From positions 1 through 64,000 of IMG/VR virus record IMGVR_UViG_3300028603_000001: 64,000 nt of DNA; one strand, written 5' to 3'. The position numbers and the translations under genes were made by a program. Shown here piece by piece: positions 29 through 58,229 of the stretch. This stretch comes from a virus (Duplodnaviria; Caudoviricetes). The notes under the pieces were generated by a model that saw only the letters and a list, made by a program, of their open reading frames with translations, was not told where the DNA came from and made no database searches. The first letter of the stretch is position 1; the number at the start of each line of letters is the position of its first letter.

Positions 29-102
29 TGGAAGTATAGGCGAGAATTGAACTCGCACTCTCACATTGGCAATGTGAAGTTCTACCATTAAACTACTACA
101 CC
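29..102 (-). tRNA. tRNA-Gly(GCC)
   Basis: Cloverleaf; anticodon arm TCACA-TTGCCAA-TGTGA; T-loop TTCAATT; U discriminator; encoded CCA. Confidence 0.9.
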
Positions 103-105
103 ATA

Positions 106-180
106 TGGAAGGGATAGTCGGCAACGATCCGACAACACCGACTTGGAAGGCCAGTATTTTGCCAATTAAACTATATCCCC
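106..180 (-). tRNA. tRNA-Gly(TCC)
   Basis: Acceptor GGGGATA/TATCCCT; anticodon loop CT-TCC-AA; encoded CCA; slightly atypical T-loop. Confidence 0.85.
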
Positions 181-190
181 ATATTTTGAA

Positions 191-264
191 TGGTCAGGGT
201 GAGAGGTTTCGAACCTCTGCTCAAAGCGTCCAAGGCTTTGCGACTACCATTATCATACACCCTG
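191..264 (-). tRNA. tRNA-Pro(TGG)
   Basis: Acceptor CAGGGTG/CACCCTG; loop CT-TGG-AC; GGTTCGAAAC T-arm; CCA. Confidence 0.92.
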
Positions 265-273
265 ATAATATGG

Positions 274-326
274 CCCACCCTAGTATACATTGTTAAGAGG
301 TCTTGGTGGGATCTATTTTAAATAAC
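274..326 (-). ncRNA. Candidate minimal HDV-like (theta) ribozyme in the 3' trailer of tRNA(CAT); possibly degenerate
   Basis: G1 directly follows the tRNA CCA; P1 GTTATT/AACAAT with G1-U wobble; P2 CCCACC/GGTGGG; short P3/L3 AA-GACCTC-TT; J4/2 ACTAG; no P4. Confidence 0.4.
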
Positions 327-401
327 TGGTGGACCCGGCTGGATTCGAACCAACAACCACCCCGTTATGAGCGGGGAGCTCTGCCATTAAGCTACGGGTC
401 C
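327..401 (-). tRNA. tRNA-Ile2/Met(CAT)
   Basis: Anticodon arm CCCCG-CTCATAA-CGGGG; GGACCCG acceptor resembles Firmicutes tRNA-Ile2; CCA. Confidence 0.9.
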
Positions 402-407
402 ATTAAA

Positions 408-484
408 TGGCACGCTTAGCATGATTCGAACACGCATCATTCTGTTTCGAAGACAGATACTTTATCCAATTAAGCTATAAGCGC
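408..484 (-). tRNA. tRNA-Arg(TCG)
   Basis: Anticodon arm TCTGT-CTTCGAA-ACAGA; GTTCGAATC T-loop; GCCA end. Confidence 0.9.
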
Positions 485-584
485 ATTTTATGGTTGATTA
501 TTATTTTCTTGTATCTGTATTTGTGTTCGTATTTATGTTTCTTTTGCTTCTTTCCTCGCGCACAAAACAAACATATACATATGA

Positions 585-659
585 TGGCAAGGGTAAGAGG
601 AATTGAACCCCTATCAGTAGTTTTGGAGGCTACCGCTTTACCTTTTAAGCTATACCCCT
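585..659 (-). tRNA. tRNA-Trp(CCA)
   Basis: AGGGGTA acceptor; loop CT-CCA-AA; GCCA end. Confidence 0.92.
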
Positions 660-2341: not shown

Positions 2342-3259
2342 TTATTTTAAGAATTTTTCGATATATTCTCTATTATCTTTAAAAACCGGAATATCGTAAT
2401 CAATACCCCACCTTCTTCTTGTAAACTTTATTTCCTTTTCTTGACCTTTTACTACAATTGTTTTTACTTCCTCTACAGGCTCTAATCTAGTTACTACCGA
2501 ACCTCTTCTTTCGGAAGTTGAATACCCTAATTCAAAATCAACCGATTTATCTTCTTTCATTCTCTCAATCATCTGTTTACCATTTAGACCTTGTAATGAT
2601 TTATGACTGAATAAAGATTGAGCTACCATGGATATAGAGTTCTTTATTGCATCTTGTTGTCTCCAAATGAAATAATTTATTACCTCATCTTCTGGTAAAA
2701 CAAAAGCTCTTGAGTCGAACAATGCCCCTTTAGTTGATGCAATCATATGCGAATTTCTTATGTTTCTTATAACACTTAACTCTTCTAGGGTTGGAATATC
2801 TGGAGGTGATTTTTCCCATTCACTAGATGCTTTACTAAAACTAAATGCTTGGTTAAATTTTAGTGTTGCCATAGATGCGGTAATTGAAACAAGTTTGTTT
2901 AGGTTGTTGTCAAACCACGCAGATTGTTCTGAGTTATTCAACTTAAAAGGTGTCACTAAAACTGATATTTCATCTGATTGGTGATACGCCATTTGTGCAC
3001 CGGGTATATTCTCTACTAAATACTTTGCTGTTTCTTCCATACAGGATTTCAGTAGTCTATCAAAAGGCTTCTTAAAACCCCTAGTAAAAGTATGAAACGC
3101 ATTTCCATCGATCCTTATTATAATGCAGTTATCTTTAGGGAGGTAGAATCTAGTCAGATTTTCATATTCCTTCATTCTGTTTCCTAAAGATTTTGTTTCG
3201 TCCATTACATTAATTTTTTCTAGTTCCTTATCTAGATTTAAGATGTTCTTCTTAATCAT
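2342..3259 (-). CDS. thg1: Thg1-like tRNA(His) guanylyltransferase / 3'-5' RNA polymerase
   Basis: Motifs RMKEYE, IRIDGNAFHTFT, QSDEIS, FDSR, YFIWRQQDAIKNSI. Confidence 0.93.
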   Translation of the reverse strand: MIKKNILNLDKELEKINVMDETKSLGNRMKEYENLTRFYLPKDNCIIIRIDGNAFHTFTRGFKKPFDRLLKSCMEETAKYLVENIPGAQMAYHQSDEISVLVTPFKLNNSEQSAWFDNNLNKLVSITASMATLKFNQAFSFSKASSEWEKSPPDIPTLEELSVIRNIRNSHMIASTKGALFDSRAFVLPEDEVINYFIWRQQDAIKNSISMVAQSLFSHKSLQGLNGKQMIERMKEDKSVDFELGYSTSERRGSVVTRLEPVEEVKTIVVKGQEKEIKFTRRRWGIDYDIPVFKDNREYIEKFLK

Positions 3260-3285
3260 ATTTTGTCTCCCTCTTTGTTAATGAC

Positions 3286-3489
3286 TCAGACTTTAATCGT
3301 CGATTTCTTTATTTTCTTCAAAAACTTCTTAACGTCACTACCATTTATATCAGTAGAATTAATTTGTTTCTGTGAATGTTTTTTGGGTGCCACCATAGAT
3401 TTTTCAATAGCTTTTACAAATTTTTTTACAGATTTACTGTCAGAAAATATAATATTTTCCATTATACTTTGTGTTGCCATATCATTCAC
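3286..3489 (-). CDS. Hypothetical basic protein
   Basis: ORF with GAGGTG SD. Confidence 0.6.
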   Translation of the reverse strand: MNDMATQSIMENIIFSDSKSVKKFVKAIEKSMVAPKKHSQKQINSTDINGSDVKKFLKKIKKSTIKV

Positions 3490-3536
3490 CTCTTTATATT
3501 CTTATTTCTTTATTTAGTTAATGTTTTTCTTTTTGT

Positions 3537-3764
3537 TTATCTATCTATATCTGTTTTATTTTCTTGTTTTCCTAAATCGTATATTGAATTGATAAAATCT
3601 AATAATATTGGTTTCTGAACGTTTTCTATGTAACCTTTTTCTGCACCGTAATTGTAAATATAATTATAGAGAGTTTCTGCTTCATATTGGCCTAAATTTT
3701 CTACCTCTTCAATGGTTTTAAATCTGCTGTTTTCTGTTATATGTGCTTTCATATTATTTGTCAT
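3537..3764 (-). CDS. Hypothetical protein
   Basis: Co-oriented ORF with SD. Confidence 0.65.
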   Translation of the reverse strand: MTNNMKAHITENSRFKTIEEVENLGQYEAETLYNYIYNYGAEKGYIENVQKPILLDFINSIYDLGKQENKTDIDR

Positions 3765-24048: not shown

Positions 24049-24057
24049 AATTTAGCA
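24049..24057 (-). promoter_or_regulatory. Putative late promoter TGCTAAATT
   Basis: Recurring motif upstream of virion genes. Confidence 0.7.
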
Positions 24058-54800: not shown

Positions 54801-55407
54801 CATATAAAGAGTTTGATATAATAACACCATTTTCAGCAACCATAACCTCTGGAAAATAAAGTCTATTATTAGATGTAAGATTTTCAAGTTGTATCAAATT
54901 ATTGCCTAAAACCGATAGGTGTTGAATTTTTCCCTGAATAACTGATATTTCACCTGAAGTGTTTGTAGTTTTTGATATTTCTGCATTCTCCATTGTTACA
55001 TAAGCTATTTTAGATGAAGATTCAATTACTGAATACCTAGGAATTACGATATTTGAAATCAATTCCTCCGGTTTCTTGTAGCTACATACAACAGTTGTTT
55101 GTGCAGCTACATAGTAATGCATATGATATCCCAGAGATTCAGTTAATTCTCGCATCGATTCTTCTTGCGTACAACTAGAAATAAACATCTCTAATATATT
55201 CTTATCAATATTATAATTTACTTTATCTGCTACAAACGCAGCTAATTTAAGCAGAACGACAAATGGGTCGGTTTCAACAGCAGTTGTTGGTGAAAATCTA
55301 TTACTTATTTTTTCCGCGTATGTTAATAATTCCTCATAAATAGCTGCAAAATCTTTATTTGTATAAGATTTATTAGATATTTCTAATTCTCTTTCGGTGA
55401 ATGCCAT
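51865..55407 (-). CDS. Baseplate wedge protein (T4 gp6 / baseplate J-like)
   Basis: SYTNKDF, LGY, VTQG..GNV, GSNPET, TLVT.RDY. Confidence 0.88.
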   Translation of the reverse strand: MAFTERELEISNKSYTNKDFAAIYEELLTYAEKISNRFSPTTAVETDPFVVLLKLAAFVADKVNYNIDKNILEMFISSCTQEESMRELTESLGYHMHYYVAAQTTVVCSYKKPEELISNIVIPRYSVIESSSKIAYVTMENAEISKTTNTSGEISVIQGKIQHLSVLGNNLIQLENLTSNNRLYFPEVMVAENGVIISNSLYGSSLWEKVDNLNTQIYGSPCYKFGFDSKRNLPYIEFPEWVSDIIGDGLTVDYVVTQGEIGNVAAKELINIKKRTVIQDGQVIDDGIDNADIRVTNLSAAVSGSNPETLDQSYLGFKKIIGTFDTLVTCRDYANVIYNMLNQTTGTPLVSNVQVADRRTDINYACDVVTYDVAAGSIVESIPKAAITPFDLTIYPFRPITNTTFSAINSNTDGYNNSFKLLPQNKINAITAQIETNTNLYKNLSHTYKTLANEDIVSIQLCYDLTATISTTAKVNILEQSDIIANVYSALAKEFNARKLNFGYEIPFEKLIDVMKNADARIKAVSLQEPEQTPKIITKDGDEHDIYIDSSTDSDEFKKIVAKNVLGGRVPLFEYDNDFTPDYSYEEVEKITGVKRITTECNIDTIDGGNSYTLKDNEVVQFIAPNIISENIYAAGVLYYLELNSGTDIPANTDYLLKSGETLLLYYFKDNKWTYDFITSGKIINSKNILYTEAGHTANSKSPDKNPTINSETYPVYYLGPDEQIEIKKINSEKLVIQKKCYWITNEPKNEIKWEGDVYTLKENEYFFYSDPNLTSLYAFGSGTKLKRTSGMSNWNWECDADINIDDINLEGLYALRDSFKTVVFTSENYLEITENEIKTFTAGDTIYIGSGSPSLTITDNDFTLIDDGTKISYQYANTSDREDLPDKSLVPDADWSCRSILDINCGPNLEQVLVSNQKIYYSIDDSAIDTEDSGTYDGVLEQGFVLKANTLIQKGGGKNINLGVFTLANLEDFVYPTLLKISKATDCAIQVLENGMYGPNFDGSGEAKFYAADVADVDCYVMIYGNDIGEVAKPTLQAYDSDSNPIGNDVELNNGINILKLTLTAPTAAYWILNRLEPEQSFTMSPLKYVKGINPLLGLKSDLATFITYLETEFGEQYEKFYPFADLDPSKEIELSETVTLNTAQAFYDSNNIANKWVLPKIDFSASKDKIRIAKSSMK

Positions 55408-55409
55408 AT

Positions 55410-55784
55410 TTATTCACTCCCTTCTATTTTAAATAAAACCAGAGAGAACATATTCGTAATAAATGTTTCTTGATTTTTATATATAATATTTGCTACAAGT
55501 TTACTTCCATCAATAAATATTTTTATATCTCTTCTTTCAATATAAATTTGTGGGCAATAATCTACTATTTTTGTGTATATTTCATCAATTAAGATATCTC
55601 TTAATATAACATTATTCTGTTCAAAAAAATATCTTTTCAGGTGTATCCCAAAATCTGGATCACCAAAAAATTCGCCGCATTCAGAACTTACAAGTAAGCG
55701 AATGCTTTGTTTTGTGGCTTCATCTCCATATTTAACAGAAGTAGAATTACCATTAAATATTTTAGGAAAACTTATAGTGTTCAT
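55410..55784 (-). CDS. gp25/GPW-like baseplate (sheath initiator) protein
   Basis: GEFFGDPDFG..LKRYFFE. Confidence 0.88.
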   Translation of the reverse strand: MNTISFPKIFNGNSTSVKYGDEATKQSIRLLVSSECGEFFGDPDFGIHLKRYFFEQNNVILRDILIDEIYTKIVDYCPQIYIERRDIKIFIDGSKLVANIIYKNQETFITNMFSLVLFKIEGSE

Positions 55785-55820
55785 TAATTTTCTCCTTTTA
55801 AGTCATTTAAAATATCATTA

Positions 55821-55829
55821 AATTTAGCA
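55821..55829 (-). promoter_or_regulatory. Putative late promoter TGCTAAATT
   Basis: Recurring motif. Confidence 0.7.
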
Positions 55830-55863
55830 CAAATACTGATATTTTTATTTTACATAAATAATT

Positions 55864-55948
55864 CTGAGGTAAACATGCATTATATGCTCGATAACCGAGC
55901 GTAGTCATAATTACTGCTAAAGGCAGCAAACTCATAAGCTCACCCCAG
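55864..55948 (-). ncRNA. Candidate structured RNA (three-way junction)
   Basis: GC-rich island; 11-bp closing stem and two inner stems with many G-U pairs that work only on the minus strand. Confidence 0.55.
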
Positions 55949-55957
55949 TTATTTTTG

Positions 55958-56998
55958 TTATTTAATCAAGGTATATAACCATGAAGTATTTATCTTGTAA
56001 TCATCGTTAACTTTATACGGTAATTTTCCTTCAATTGGGTCATAAAACGACATTATATCTTTTCTAAATCCCATATGTAGTGTTTCACTAGATAAACTTA
56101 TTAAATTTCCTTGCGCATCAACCAAACCAAATTTAATTTTTAATGAACCTGTAAAATCTCTTCCACTGTTCCTTTTACCACTTCCATAGAATAAAGTAAA
56201 ATCATCTGTTTCTTGATCGTAAGAGATTAGAGGTAACCAGTCAATGCGATAATCAATACGTATAAAGCCATCATCTATATGTTGCTGTGTTATTTCCCAT
56301 TCTGTTTTAATTAAACCGTTATTAGGCATCCATACTGGGACATCAGGATTAATCGCTCCATCTAAACCTTGGTTTTTATTTGCAATATATCCATAACCAA
56401 AAGATGCAACACCTATATTTAAATTATTTGGATCTGATGGATGCTGATATCCTTTCTTGGATTGTCTACGTCTAGTTGTTCGGTATAAAAAAATTCTTGA
56501 TCCAATATCTGAAGCAGTAAAATTATTCAAACATATGTAAATATTATCAATGTCTTTTTTGATAGTGATCACTTTATTAATTTTATTTTCAAGATATGTG
56601 ACTTTTTCTTGCAACATTTCATTTTGCTGGATTGTTGATTGTATATCATTAAAAGATATATCACCAATAAAAGTATTTTTAGATAATTCTGTATGTCCAG
56701 TTACAGATAATCCTTTTAATTTGAGTTTTCCATTACTCTTATTATCTAAACCTTGATATATTTTCCCTAAAATTATCGGCAAAGATTTATTATTATTTAA
56801 AAATCCTACATAAACAACATCACCTATAGCATAGGAATCATATAAGCCAGGAATAGTTGAACAGTTAGCTACATATGTGTAATTACTTTTATTATCATCT
56901 CCAGGTATTTGAAATATATTCAATTCGACTTTATATGCGTTCCCAACGAAATTTCCTTTATTTATTCCTATTTCTCTTATTATGCCTGCTGTGATCAT
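55958..56998 (-). CDS. Baseplate spike-like protein (gp5/gpV OB-fold) with an extra C-terminal domain
   Basis: GDVVYVGF...PIILG; follows the hub gene. Confidence 0.7.
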   Translation of the reverse strand: MITAGIIREIGINKGNFVGNAYKVELNIFQIPGDDNKSNYTYVANCSTIPGLYDSYAIGDVVYVGFLNNNKSLPIILGKIYQGLDNKSNGKLKLKGLSVTGHTELSKNTFIGDISFNDIQSTIQQNEMLQEKVTYLENKINKVITIKKDIDNIYICLNNFTASDIGSRIFLYRTTRRRQSKKGYQHPSDPNNLNIGVASFGYGYIANKNQGLDGAINPDVPVWMPNNGLIKTEWEITQQHIDDGFIRIDYRIDWLPLISYDQETDDFTLFYGSGKRNSGRDFTGSLKIKFGLVDAQGNLISLSSETLHMGFRKDIMSFYDPIEGKLPYKVNDDYKINTSWLYTLIK

Positions 56999-57020
56999 AT
57001 GTTTCTCCTATAATTTTAAT

Positions 57021-58229
57021 TTATTCATCGCCTATTCTTTGTAGGTTTAATGTAGTTTTGTAACCATCACCGTCTATTCTATCTACTTGTTTTGTTATAA
57101 TATATAGTCCTGAATGTATATGTCTTTTTCCGAATAGTATTATATTTACTCTAACATATGTCATTAGTATAGCTGGTCGTAATAATCCCCTAATAGTTAA
57201 ACTAGCTTTTATTGGAAATTGTGTTATCTTATTCCACCAGGTCATGTCATCATTTCTTGTTTCATATAACGGGTTGTTACTAGAAATAACTGGTGCGTAA
57301 ATTTCCTCATATTCTCCATTTGCATTTATTCTTGAAACATATTCTTGAGGGTGTAATTCTTTTTGATAATTATAGAGAATTGAGTAATTTTCATCTTGCT
57401 CCACTGCAAAATTAAACACATAATTTGATCCTGGGTAGCCTATATCTAGCTGATATGCCTCAGGATGTAATATTTTATTATCAACTAAAACGATTTTAAA
57501 ATATGATCCTCCAAAAACCCCAGTTGTATCATCAACTATAGTCAAGACATAAAAAGCACCATTTGATACACCTCTATTAACATCTGGGGTCATAAGAGAT
57601 ACTAATTCATTTAAATAATCCAATACTGAGATATTATCATACTGTCTTATTGATACTTCCATATCTGTATTAGGAATTAATCCAGCGTTTGCAACTAATG
57701 TTAAATTTCGCATACCAGGGAATAAGTCTTGGAGACCATACTTTTCATTATCTTTTAATATATCCCAAATACGCATACTTGGTTGTACTGTTTCAGCTGG
57801 AAAAGGATATCCTCCGCTTAGTCCTAAAGAAGCTTGACTAACAGCTGTTATAGTATACTCTATAATAGCGCCATCTAAAAATCTTGAAGTTGTTTTTGTG
57901 ATAATTCCTACTTCATTTCTATATATGAAATTAGGCATAGAAGCATCACCATAGGTAAATTCTATCTTACGTGTTCCAGATACGCTTGAAAGGACTTTTT
58001 CAAAATAATTTGGGTCATTAAATTGGTTTATAACATAGACTAATGATAACACGTAAGTATTAACTTTTCCATTTACTTTTGTCACCTCTAATGACTTGAC
58101 ATAGTTTGGATATTGTTGAAACCCTGTTTTTTCATCTTTTTTATATACCCCAAAGCTATACTCACCAATATTCACTTGAACAACTGGAACCTGAACATAT
58201 ACCGGAGCTGTTATTAAACTTTGCGACAT
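57021..58229 (-). CDS. Baseplate hub protein (gp27/gpD-like)
   Basis: SGLYIIT...D.I...GYKTTL.L.R C-terminus; synteny. Confidence 0.75.
   Translation of the reverse strand: MSQSLITAPVYVQVPVVQVNIGEYSFGVYKKDEKTGFQQYPNYVKSLEVTKVNGKVNTYVLSLVYVINQFNDPNYFEKVLSSVSGTRKIEFTYGDASMPNFIYRNEVGIITKTTSRFLDGAIIEYTITAVSQASLGLSGGYPFPAETVQPSMRIWDILKDNEKYGLQDLFPGMRNLTLVANAGLIPNTDMEVSIRQYDNISVLDYLNELVSLMTPDVNRGVSNGAFYVLTIVDDTTGVFGGSYFKIVLVDNKILHPEAYQLDIGYPGSNYVFNFAVEQDENYSILYNYQKELHPQEYVSRINANGEYEEIYAPVISSNNPLYETRNDDMTWWNKITQFPIKASLTIRGLLRPAILMTYVRVNIILFGKRHIHSGLYIITKQVDRIDGDGYKTTLNLQRIGDE

Follow-up and report, generated by a model that had tools for sequence, protein, structure and literature searches.

The phi29 pRNA, a three-way junction of ~120-174 nt, is transcribed from its own promoter, binds the portal and forms an Rfam family of its own. 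To our knowledge, no other RNA has been described that acts together with a structural machine of a phage, and we know of no description of structured RNAs dedicated to phage tail or host-range modules; a literature search likewise found no described RNA linked to phage tail or receptor-binding genes. The late mRNAs of T7-like and T-even phages carry 3' stabilising hairpins and RNase III sites; each of these is one long, irregular hairpin, and they do not go with any particular protein domain. The attC site of integrons is an imperfect inverted repeat located after the cassette open reading frame (ORF); its fold is strand-specific and sometimes branched, and the structure is kept while the sequence varies. 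For hammerheads in prophages, the proposed role is to divide long late transcripts into mRNAs the length of a gene (Perreault et al. 2011, PMC3088659). They flank single genes or short gene blocks, in one case beside a tail gene, and variation of their core is tolerated (PMC3088659). Here, we describe an 85-nt RNA element located directly behind the gene for a central baseplate spike in a Caudoviricetes virus (IMG/VR record IMGVR_UViG_3300028603_000001; 180.8 kb, direct terminal repeats, 29% GC), of which the first 64 kb (64,000 nt) are the window analysed. The element is a genuine, strand-specific folded RNA that is selectively maintained, and it has moved together with the C-terminal tip domain of the spike.

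Fold of the RNA element

The spike and the element are both on the minus strand, and the features of the element are given below. The loci compared are labelled L002-L035 and comprise metagenomic and viral contigs as well as prophage regions of GTDB metagenome-assembled genomes (MAGs).

55864-55948, minus strand: the whole three-way-junction RNA element, 85 nt, from minimum free energy (MFE) folds; 90.9 bits with covariance model (CM) R1; single-copy in the genome
55949-55957, minus strand: A-rich spacer of 9 nt, CAAAAATAA, from the stop codon to the closing stem, read from the sequence
55938-55948, minus strand: 5' strand of the closing stem P1, CUGGGGUGAGC, which pairs with 55864-55874; 96% of cells paired over four variants
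55930-55937, minus strand: linker J1/2, UUAUGAGU, with the recurrent AUGA/UGA motif, from the fold and the UGA enrichment
55911-55929, minus strand: arm P2, UUGCUGC-CUUUA-GCAGUAA, from the fold and the variant alignment
55901-55910, minus strand: linker J2/3, UUAUGACUAC, from the fold
55886-55900, minus strand: arm P3, GCUCG-GUUAU-CGAGC, 8 bp in relatives, from the fold and the variant alignment
55875-55885, minus strand: linker J3/1, AUAUAAUGCAU, from the fold
55864-55874, minus strand: 3' strand of P1, GUUUACCUCAG, also the 3' edge of the divergent cassette, from the fold and the comparison with L002

The spike gene ends with TAA and the element starts 9 nt later. A first-pass annotation, made from the letters alone, had proposed an 85-nt fold at this distance from the stop, and MFE folding of 55864-55948 reproduces it. 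The stems named there all form, namely a closing stem of 11 bp, the arm UUGCUGC/GCAGUAA with its extension UUAUGA/UUAUGA, and the arm GCUCG/CGAGC. The MFE is -31.4 kcal/mol for the sense strand (z -4.1, a value reached by none of 200 shuffles) and -19.2 kcal/mol for the antisense strand (z -1.3), which bears out the sense-strand specificity suggested in that annotation. Among the 90-nt windows of the whole genome (~12,000 sliding windows; mean -10.5, sd 4.2), none outside the tRNAs is more stable than the element. When gene ends are ranked by their best long-range duplex (nt 4-36 against nt 56-150 after the stop), it is first of the 187 in its own genome. The description 'GC-rich' holds relative to the genome (44% against 29%) but not in absolute terms.

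Close copies of the element are present in three metagenomic contigs (L002, L019 and L020). Of the 120 pair cells in the four copies, 94% hold standard pairs, and one pair of P3 (columns 48/65) reads U-A, G-C or C.A. Paired columns vary in 13 of 60 cases and unpaired columns in 14 of 28 (Fisher p 0.012). The copies differ at 15-21 of 88 positions, which is at or above the local synonymous divergence (dS 0.12-0.22). As pairing is kept while divergence reaches or exceeds dS, selection appears to act on shape and not on sequence. Linkers J2/3 and J3/1 vary freely among near-identical phages.

The element matches no described RNA family in the searches made. With the Rfam 15 covariance models run over the window, six tRNAs alone reach the gathering threshold, and at E <= 10 the region 55700-56100 gives only snoRNA-type and other chance matches. 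ARAGORN finds 12 tRNAs in the genome, none of them at the element, and is also negative for transfer-messenger RNA (tmRNA).

Spike, tip domain and cassette

The spike gene and its two parts are located as follows.

55958-56998, minus strand: central baseplate spike gene, 346 aa (P0001), from the ORF and translation, the P2-like gene order and OB-fold matches to spikes of contractile injection systems (CIS), VgrG and phages
56574-56998, minus strand: N-terminal OB-fold with the first part of the helix (residues 1 to ~142), which is conserved and not swapped; 96.7% DNA identity to L003
55961-56548, minus strand: C-terminal tip domain, residues 151-346, a predicted beta-sandwich of no known family, from homolog alignments and an AlphaFold2 (AF2) model

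P0001 is a central baseplate spike of the gp5/gpV/VgrG type. Residues 1-160 are modelled as an OB-fold followed by a helix at 116-158, and the best Foldseek matches of this N-terminal model are central spikes of Streptomyces CIS, Pvc8, Afp8 and VgrG (E 9e-4 to 2e-2) and of Anabaena CIS, along with the baseplates of phages phi812 and P1. A profile search of PDB sequences with the spike retrieves VgrG at E 0.014. The neighbourhood agrees, as the next gene matches phrog_43 in addition to a baseplate wedge family and a LysM baseplate protein is encoded upstream. The motifs quoted in the first-pass annotation, LYRTTRRRQSKKGYQHP (residues 171-187), FGYG (200-203) and VPVWMPNNGLIKTEW (220-234), are all found in the translation.

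The tip domain (~195 aa) matches no Pfam or PHROG family. An exhaustive HMMER search at E<=1e-3 gave relatives in 68 representative clusters (50% identity), in all of which the domain is C-terminal. At least three kinds of N-terminus precede it: OB-fold spikes, a second type from Clostridia prophages and collagen-like fibres. Conservation is seen at H186-P187, G201-Y202, P218, P221, W223-M224-P225, G228, T232-E233 and G272. The AF2 model is a beta-sandwich (predicted local distance difference test (pLDDT) 88). Searches of PDB and BFVD give it no convincing relative (Foldseek E > 0.1, VIA Z <= 4.7), the matches being generic Ig/FN3-like sandwiches; a structure search of the ESM Atlas with the domain gave no usable match. 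Neither blastn nor tblastn finds a match for the spike and domain locus in GenBank phages. The mean net charge over 49 homologs is +1.3 (range -11 to +9), and only R173 (61%), R176 (78%) and K289 are basic in at least 60% of them; R173 and R176 lie within an L-Y-R-T-x-R-R segment. The model would fit a carbohydrate- or receptor-binding tip and not an obvious RNA binder. No RNA-binding family is matched by Pfam, PHROG or fold search, although a missing match does not exclude binding. The domain is also present in prophage-like regions of MAGs from Eubacteriales, Lachnospiraceae, Oscillospiraceae and other Clostridia (L024-L028, GTDB), so that the hosts of the family may be Firmicutes of a gut type. 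In L021, the domain gene (11-1054) is followed by a structured element and then by a second gene (1181-1795) that has the same N-terminal motif as P0029 (MNIYIEK); the two genes look like tandem paralogs with different tips.

The comparison with L002 shows a divergent patch with a sharp 3' border. Over the upstream gene and most of the spike gene, the two differ at 0-8 positions per 90 nt (mostly 1-3 in the upstream and N-terminal parts); over the last ~100 codons and the element this becomes 9-15 per 90 nt, and just past 55864 it is 2 per 90 nt. In the comparison with L003, 96.7% of the DNA is identical as far as 56574 (residue ~142, within the helix), and past that point no identity is left. 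The N-terminus of P0001 is 52-94% identical in protein sequence to those of 18 spikes with other C-termini and just 31-42% identical to the N-termini of other tip-domain spikes. The borders with L002 and L003, together with these identities, indicate that the tip domain and the RNA moved as a unit, so that the sequence comparisons point to a recombination cassette of ~710 nt from 55864 to ~56574. This is almost exactly the extent of the module in which the first-pass annotation had linked domain and RNA.

In L019 (131-487) and L020 (577-924), ORFs of 118 and 115 aa are 3' remnants of a tip-domain gene, keeping the last ~110 aa and ~78 aa of the domain, respectively, and none of the invariant motifs. 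They stand behind unrelated upstream genes (a fibre-like protein in L020), and their dN/dS is somewhat relaxed (0.5-0.8 versus 0.3). The RNA behind both remnants is intact, with stems that are longer and more G-C-rich. This looks like cassette replacement in which the old gene end and the RNA were left behind.

Four AT-rich lineages carry the domain with a readable flank: L022 (44% identity to the domain of P0001), L033 (40%), L034/L035 (45%) and L021 (36%, with a different N-terminus). All four have a multi-stem element 7-18 nt after the stop, of 35-62% GC in loci of 28-32% GC. Taking ten lineages together, the element starts 6-11 nt after the stop in nine, and 18 nt after it in L033. In sliding-window scans of each locus, no window is more stable than the element in L033 and L034, while L022 has it in second place and L021 within the top 2-4%. 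Ranked by long-range stem against the 187 gene ends of the window's genome, L034 would be 1, L022 4, L033 20 and L021 23, compared with 64-184 for four control spikes with other tips (Fisher-combined p ~8e-4 for the four independent lineages, by our own arithmetic). Loci whose spikes have other C-termini (L014, L015, L016, L018 and L003) show no such element after the stop; the spot holds a simple hairpin or nothing, with a 19-bp stem and U-run in L016 and a weak hairpin in L014, upstream of the same promoter. The L023 contig ends 44 nt past the stop, and that stretch begins GC-rich. A Clostridia MAG prophage, L027, has a strong element that is the most stable sense-strand window of its locus (z -4.2).

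Common to the elements are their position, UGA-rich linkers and a fold of several stems that a long-range helix usually closes. UGA is the most over-represented of the 64 trinucleotides in them (26 versus 11.5 expected, z 4.4), and was placed by hand in the strands between helices. Helix assignments for the distant lineages are manual; L022 also allows an alternative 13-bp hairpin, and the fold of L033 is a four-way and not a three-way junction. The L033 spike with the tip domain (2501-3589) is readable only with TGA as Trp (code 4), and is thus a stop-codon-recoded relative in the phage group; it keeps UGA-rich linkers in its post-stop RNA.

CM R1 and nhmmer, both built on the four close copies, do not retrieve the elements of L021, L022, L033, L034 or the prophages, even with filters off and on the L022 flank alone, and MAFFT cannot align the distant elements. 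One local match between L019 and L022, GGGTG-GCTTATGA-TCGCT-CC, covers 20/24 positions at the same offset from the stop (p ~0.007, uncorrected). The expectation that the 3' flanks of domain homologs hold a conserved structure was thus borne out for structured elements in AT-rich lineages, but not for a single family, and the signal is weak or absent in GC-rich prophages. A DNA pattern search of IMG/VR with CTGGGGTGA-N55-80-TTACCTCAG returned ten loci (L004-L013), all by chance and none matched by CM R1; a stricter 25-base pattern gave 0 matches. A protein-based locus search found no relative in IMG/VR, one locus in JGI metagenomes and five in GTDB genomes; 399 Clostridia-class genomes yielded no further locus.

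Two features downstream of the cassette bear on its transcription.

55813-55829, minus strand: late-promoter-like box TGCTAAATTTAATGATA for the gp25-like gene, outside the cassette; a recurrent genome motif
55410-55784, minus strand: gp25/gpW-like baseplate wedge gene, the downstream neighbour; phrog_261 at E 1.5e-14, PF04965 weak

The box follows the element at a distance of 35 nt and precedes the gp25-like gene, and no other terminator separates it from the element. In its relaxed form, the 17-nt motif TGCTAAATTAWATGATA has 15 minus-strand and 2 plus-strand copies in the genome, among them those at 24056, 30169, 34286, 42335 and 48535 in the window and at 64371, 66308, 69170 and 129666 beyond it. 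It stands 25-45 nt ahead of the Shine-Dalgarno sequence and start codon of structural genes and is kept at the same position in L014, L015, L016, L018, L022 and L034. Judging from this recurrence, the box is probably the late promoter of the phage group and is not sigma-70-like. All genes around the spike are encoded by the minus strand, and their baseplate order is P2-like: tape measure, LysM baseplate protein, a 402-aa hub-like protein, the 346-aa spike, the gp25/gpW-like gene and a 1180-aa protein. This order is common to L003, L014-L018, L022 and L033-L035. Eleven tRNA genes form an array that spans the ends of the record (window 29-659 and genome 179711-180748, both minus strand), and a lone tRNA-Met is located at genome position 89765-89839 on the plus strand.

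Function of the RNA

The reading that we tentatively favour over all others is a cis-acting mRNA element, in the 3' untranslated region (3'UTR) or between cistrons, that is carried along by the tip cassette. Arguments for it are the strand-specific fold and its maintenance, its position, its persistence behind the remnants and its association with the domain. Within the late baseplate operon, the spike gene would be transcribed with the element as its untranslated 3' end, the compact fold starting just beyond the footprint of a ribosome on the stop codon. There, it could block 3'-to-5' decay or define a 3' end that is processed or non-canonically terminated. The level of spike mRNA would thereby be set apart from the gp25 operon, which would have its own promoter 35 nt on. 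We infer from this arrangement a stabilising or processing role.

Several points weigh against this reading. Homology between the elements of different lineages is not demonstrable. The L025 element is marginal, and the post-stop regions of L024 and L028, also from GC-rich Clostridia prophages, are no better than background. A generic stabiliser leaves unexplained why only this domain family has the element, linkage and hitch-hiking being the sole account. The UGA-rich linkers point to a junction or ligand of a more specific kind than would be needed just to stop an exonuclease.

The first-pass annotation saw in the RNA a cognate partner of the protein, acting in autoregulation or as a ribonucleoprotein (RNP) on the baseplate. 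Spikes of the gp5, gpV and VgrG kind are trimers, and a trimeric tip could bind the pseudo-threefold junction for autoregulation, co-translational assembly or a baseplate RNP. Such a module would account for the co-occurrence of domain and element across lineages and N-terminal contexts and for their movement as one cassette. The three linkers each contain AUGA/UGA, in line with the enrichment of UGA, and the conserved L-Y-R-T-x-R-R segment offers basic residues at 173 and 176. However, the beta-sandwich has no RNA-binding relative (which, as noted, does not exclude binding), the net charge averages close to neutral over the homologs, the L033 junction is four-way and the signal in prophage homologs is weak. 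The RNA is also intact behind the truncated domains of L019 and L020, which lack the invariant motifs. Remnants, fold and charge lower the odds that the RNA needs the domain, without excluding such a need, and the protein-bound RNA proposed in that annotation is unlikely.

A smaller chance is given to the element having no function of its own, as a GC-rich remnant or hitch-hiker on the cassette. A divergence at or above the synonymous rate and the undetectable homology between lineages would be expected of such a passenger, but its pairing is kept and paired columns are protected, the L019 and L020 stems are stronger and not decayed, and independent AT-rich lineages retain folds of 43-62% GC although their genomes have 32% GC. 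In a variant of this explanation the conserved entity would be a short peptide, since the +1 frame is open through the element (window 55816-55933, minus strand, ATG at 55933, 42 codons, with the hydrophobic start MSLLPLAVIMTTLGY). This ORF was rejected: indels of 1-2 nt break the frame in L002 and L019, changes among close relatives are non-conservative, and only 7-10 codons are left in L021 and L022. We read it as a by-product of the GC-rich fold.

We consider it improbable that the late polycistronic transcript is cut at the element, between the spike and gp25 genes, by self-cleavage of a new ribozyme or at a dedicated RNase processing site, which would parallel the prophage hammerheads. 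The three- or four-way junction, the short conserved linker motifs and the location between cistrons would suit a ribozyme, and J1/2 reads C-UUAUGA where the hammerhead has CUGAUGA. No hammerhead, twister, twister-sister, pistol, hatchet or hepatitis delta virus (HDV) ribozyme model matches at the element, even at E <= 10. The three permutations of the hammerhead were mapped by hand and rejected, as the linkers UUAUGAGU, UUAUGACUAC and AUAUAAUGCAU lack the CUGANGA/GAAA/UH core. The free variation of J2/3 and J3/1 among near-identical phages is unlike a catalytic core.

Equally improbable is a branched terminator of the spike transcription unit, either non-canonical and factor-independent or Rho-assisted. 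The plain hairpins of relatives L016 and L014 occupy the same spot, and a U-rich run follows the closing stem in L033, L024, L025 and L028. In the window, the sequence 3' of the closing stem reads AAUUAUUUAUGU, with no U-tract, as is also the case in L022, L034 and L027, and a terminator scan of 55300-57100 gives 0 terminator-like sites; the absence of a U-tail had been remarked in the first-pass annotation. The terminators of the phage that precede several of the other late-promoter boxes are plain hairpins with U6-8. With canonical terminators elsewhere in the phage and none scanned here, the element is not one of them, and the simple terminator named earlier as a refuting alternative does not apply in its canonical form. 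A closing stem that encloses 63 nt, in a three-way junction and not a simple hairpin, is kinetically poor for intrinsic termination.

The least probable of these readings is a DNA-level element, either a folded single strand as in attC or a replication or recombination hotspot, which would mark the 3' border of the host-range cassette and promote exchange of the cassette: the divergent patch ends with the element, three different upstream junctions (L003-type, L019 and L020) share the downstream region and, as with attC, structure is kept over sequence directly after the cassette ORF, but the element is single-copy with no partner site in the genome, and a homologous crossover in the conserved promoter region would explain the sharp border equally well. 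By reading, the ends CTGGGGT...TTACCTCAG lack the attC R''/R' cores RYYYAAC...GTTRRRY; no integrase search was made. A target hairpin of a diversity-generating retroelement (DGR) was rejected, as the genome has no PF00078 reverse transcriptase and no repeat of 55850-56600 that could serve as template.

It is doubtful, if slightly less so than the cognate module, that the post-stop elements make up a novel class of phage RNA whose function is coupled to a single family of spike or fibre tip domains. They could form a junction recognised by the tip, with the trimeric tip sitting on the pseudo-threefold junction of UGA linkers and the RNA serving in autoregulation, as an assembly cofactor or as part of a virion RNP. 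They could also be a cis regulator specific to the cassette, obliged to accompany the receptor-binding module whenever the host range is swapped. Were the function of the element tied to the tip domain, both the engineering and the annotation of host-range cassettes would have to include the RNA, and the RNA class would be new. If it is only an mRNA stabiliser, it is a clean natural case of a 3'UTR travelling with a swapped receptor-binding module, and still a sharply defined unit of recombination, ~710 nt long, for the study of tail mosaicism. The tip domain itself is a sizeable unannotated family that occurs in myophage spikes and in fibre-like proteins of Clostridia prophages.

Comparison with known systems

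Hammerheads in prophages are likewise small three-way-junction RNAs in phage intergenic regions between structural genes (PMC3088659). The C-UUAUGA linker of the element resembles CUGAUGA, but G5, GAAA, the single-nucleotide UH linker and an Rfam match are absent, and the linkers vary among close relatives. Unlike attC, the element is single-copy and has no R''/R' cores; no integrase was identified, and none was searched for. The spike resembles P2 gpV, T4 gp5 and VgrG in the succession of N-terminal OB-fold, trimeric helix or beta-helix and variable tip and in its location before a gpW/gp25-like gene. It differs from them in the tip, a beta-sandwich family of ~195 aa without a match in Pfam, PHROGs, PDB, BFVD or GenBank phages. 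The hairpins of T7 and T-even phages are, like the element, intercistronic and located directly after the stop, where they define or protect the mRNA 3' end without a canonical U-tract. The element differs from these hairpins in being branched, with stems of 5-13 bp that are too short for RNase III. There is no match to the Rfam family of the phi29 pRNA, and the element is associated with a tail gene and not with the portal. Both are phage-encoded three-way-junction RNAs, and the pRNA, which works with an oligomeric structural machine, is the sole precedent for an RNP formed by the element and the spike tip.

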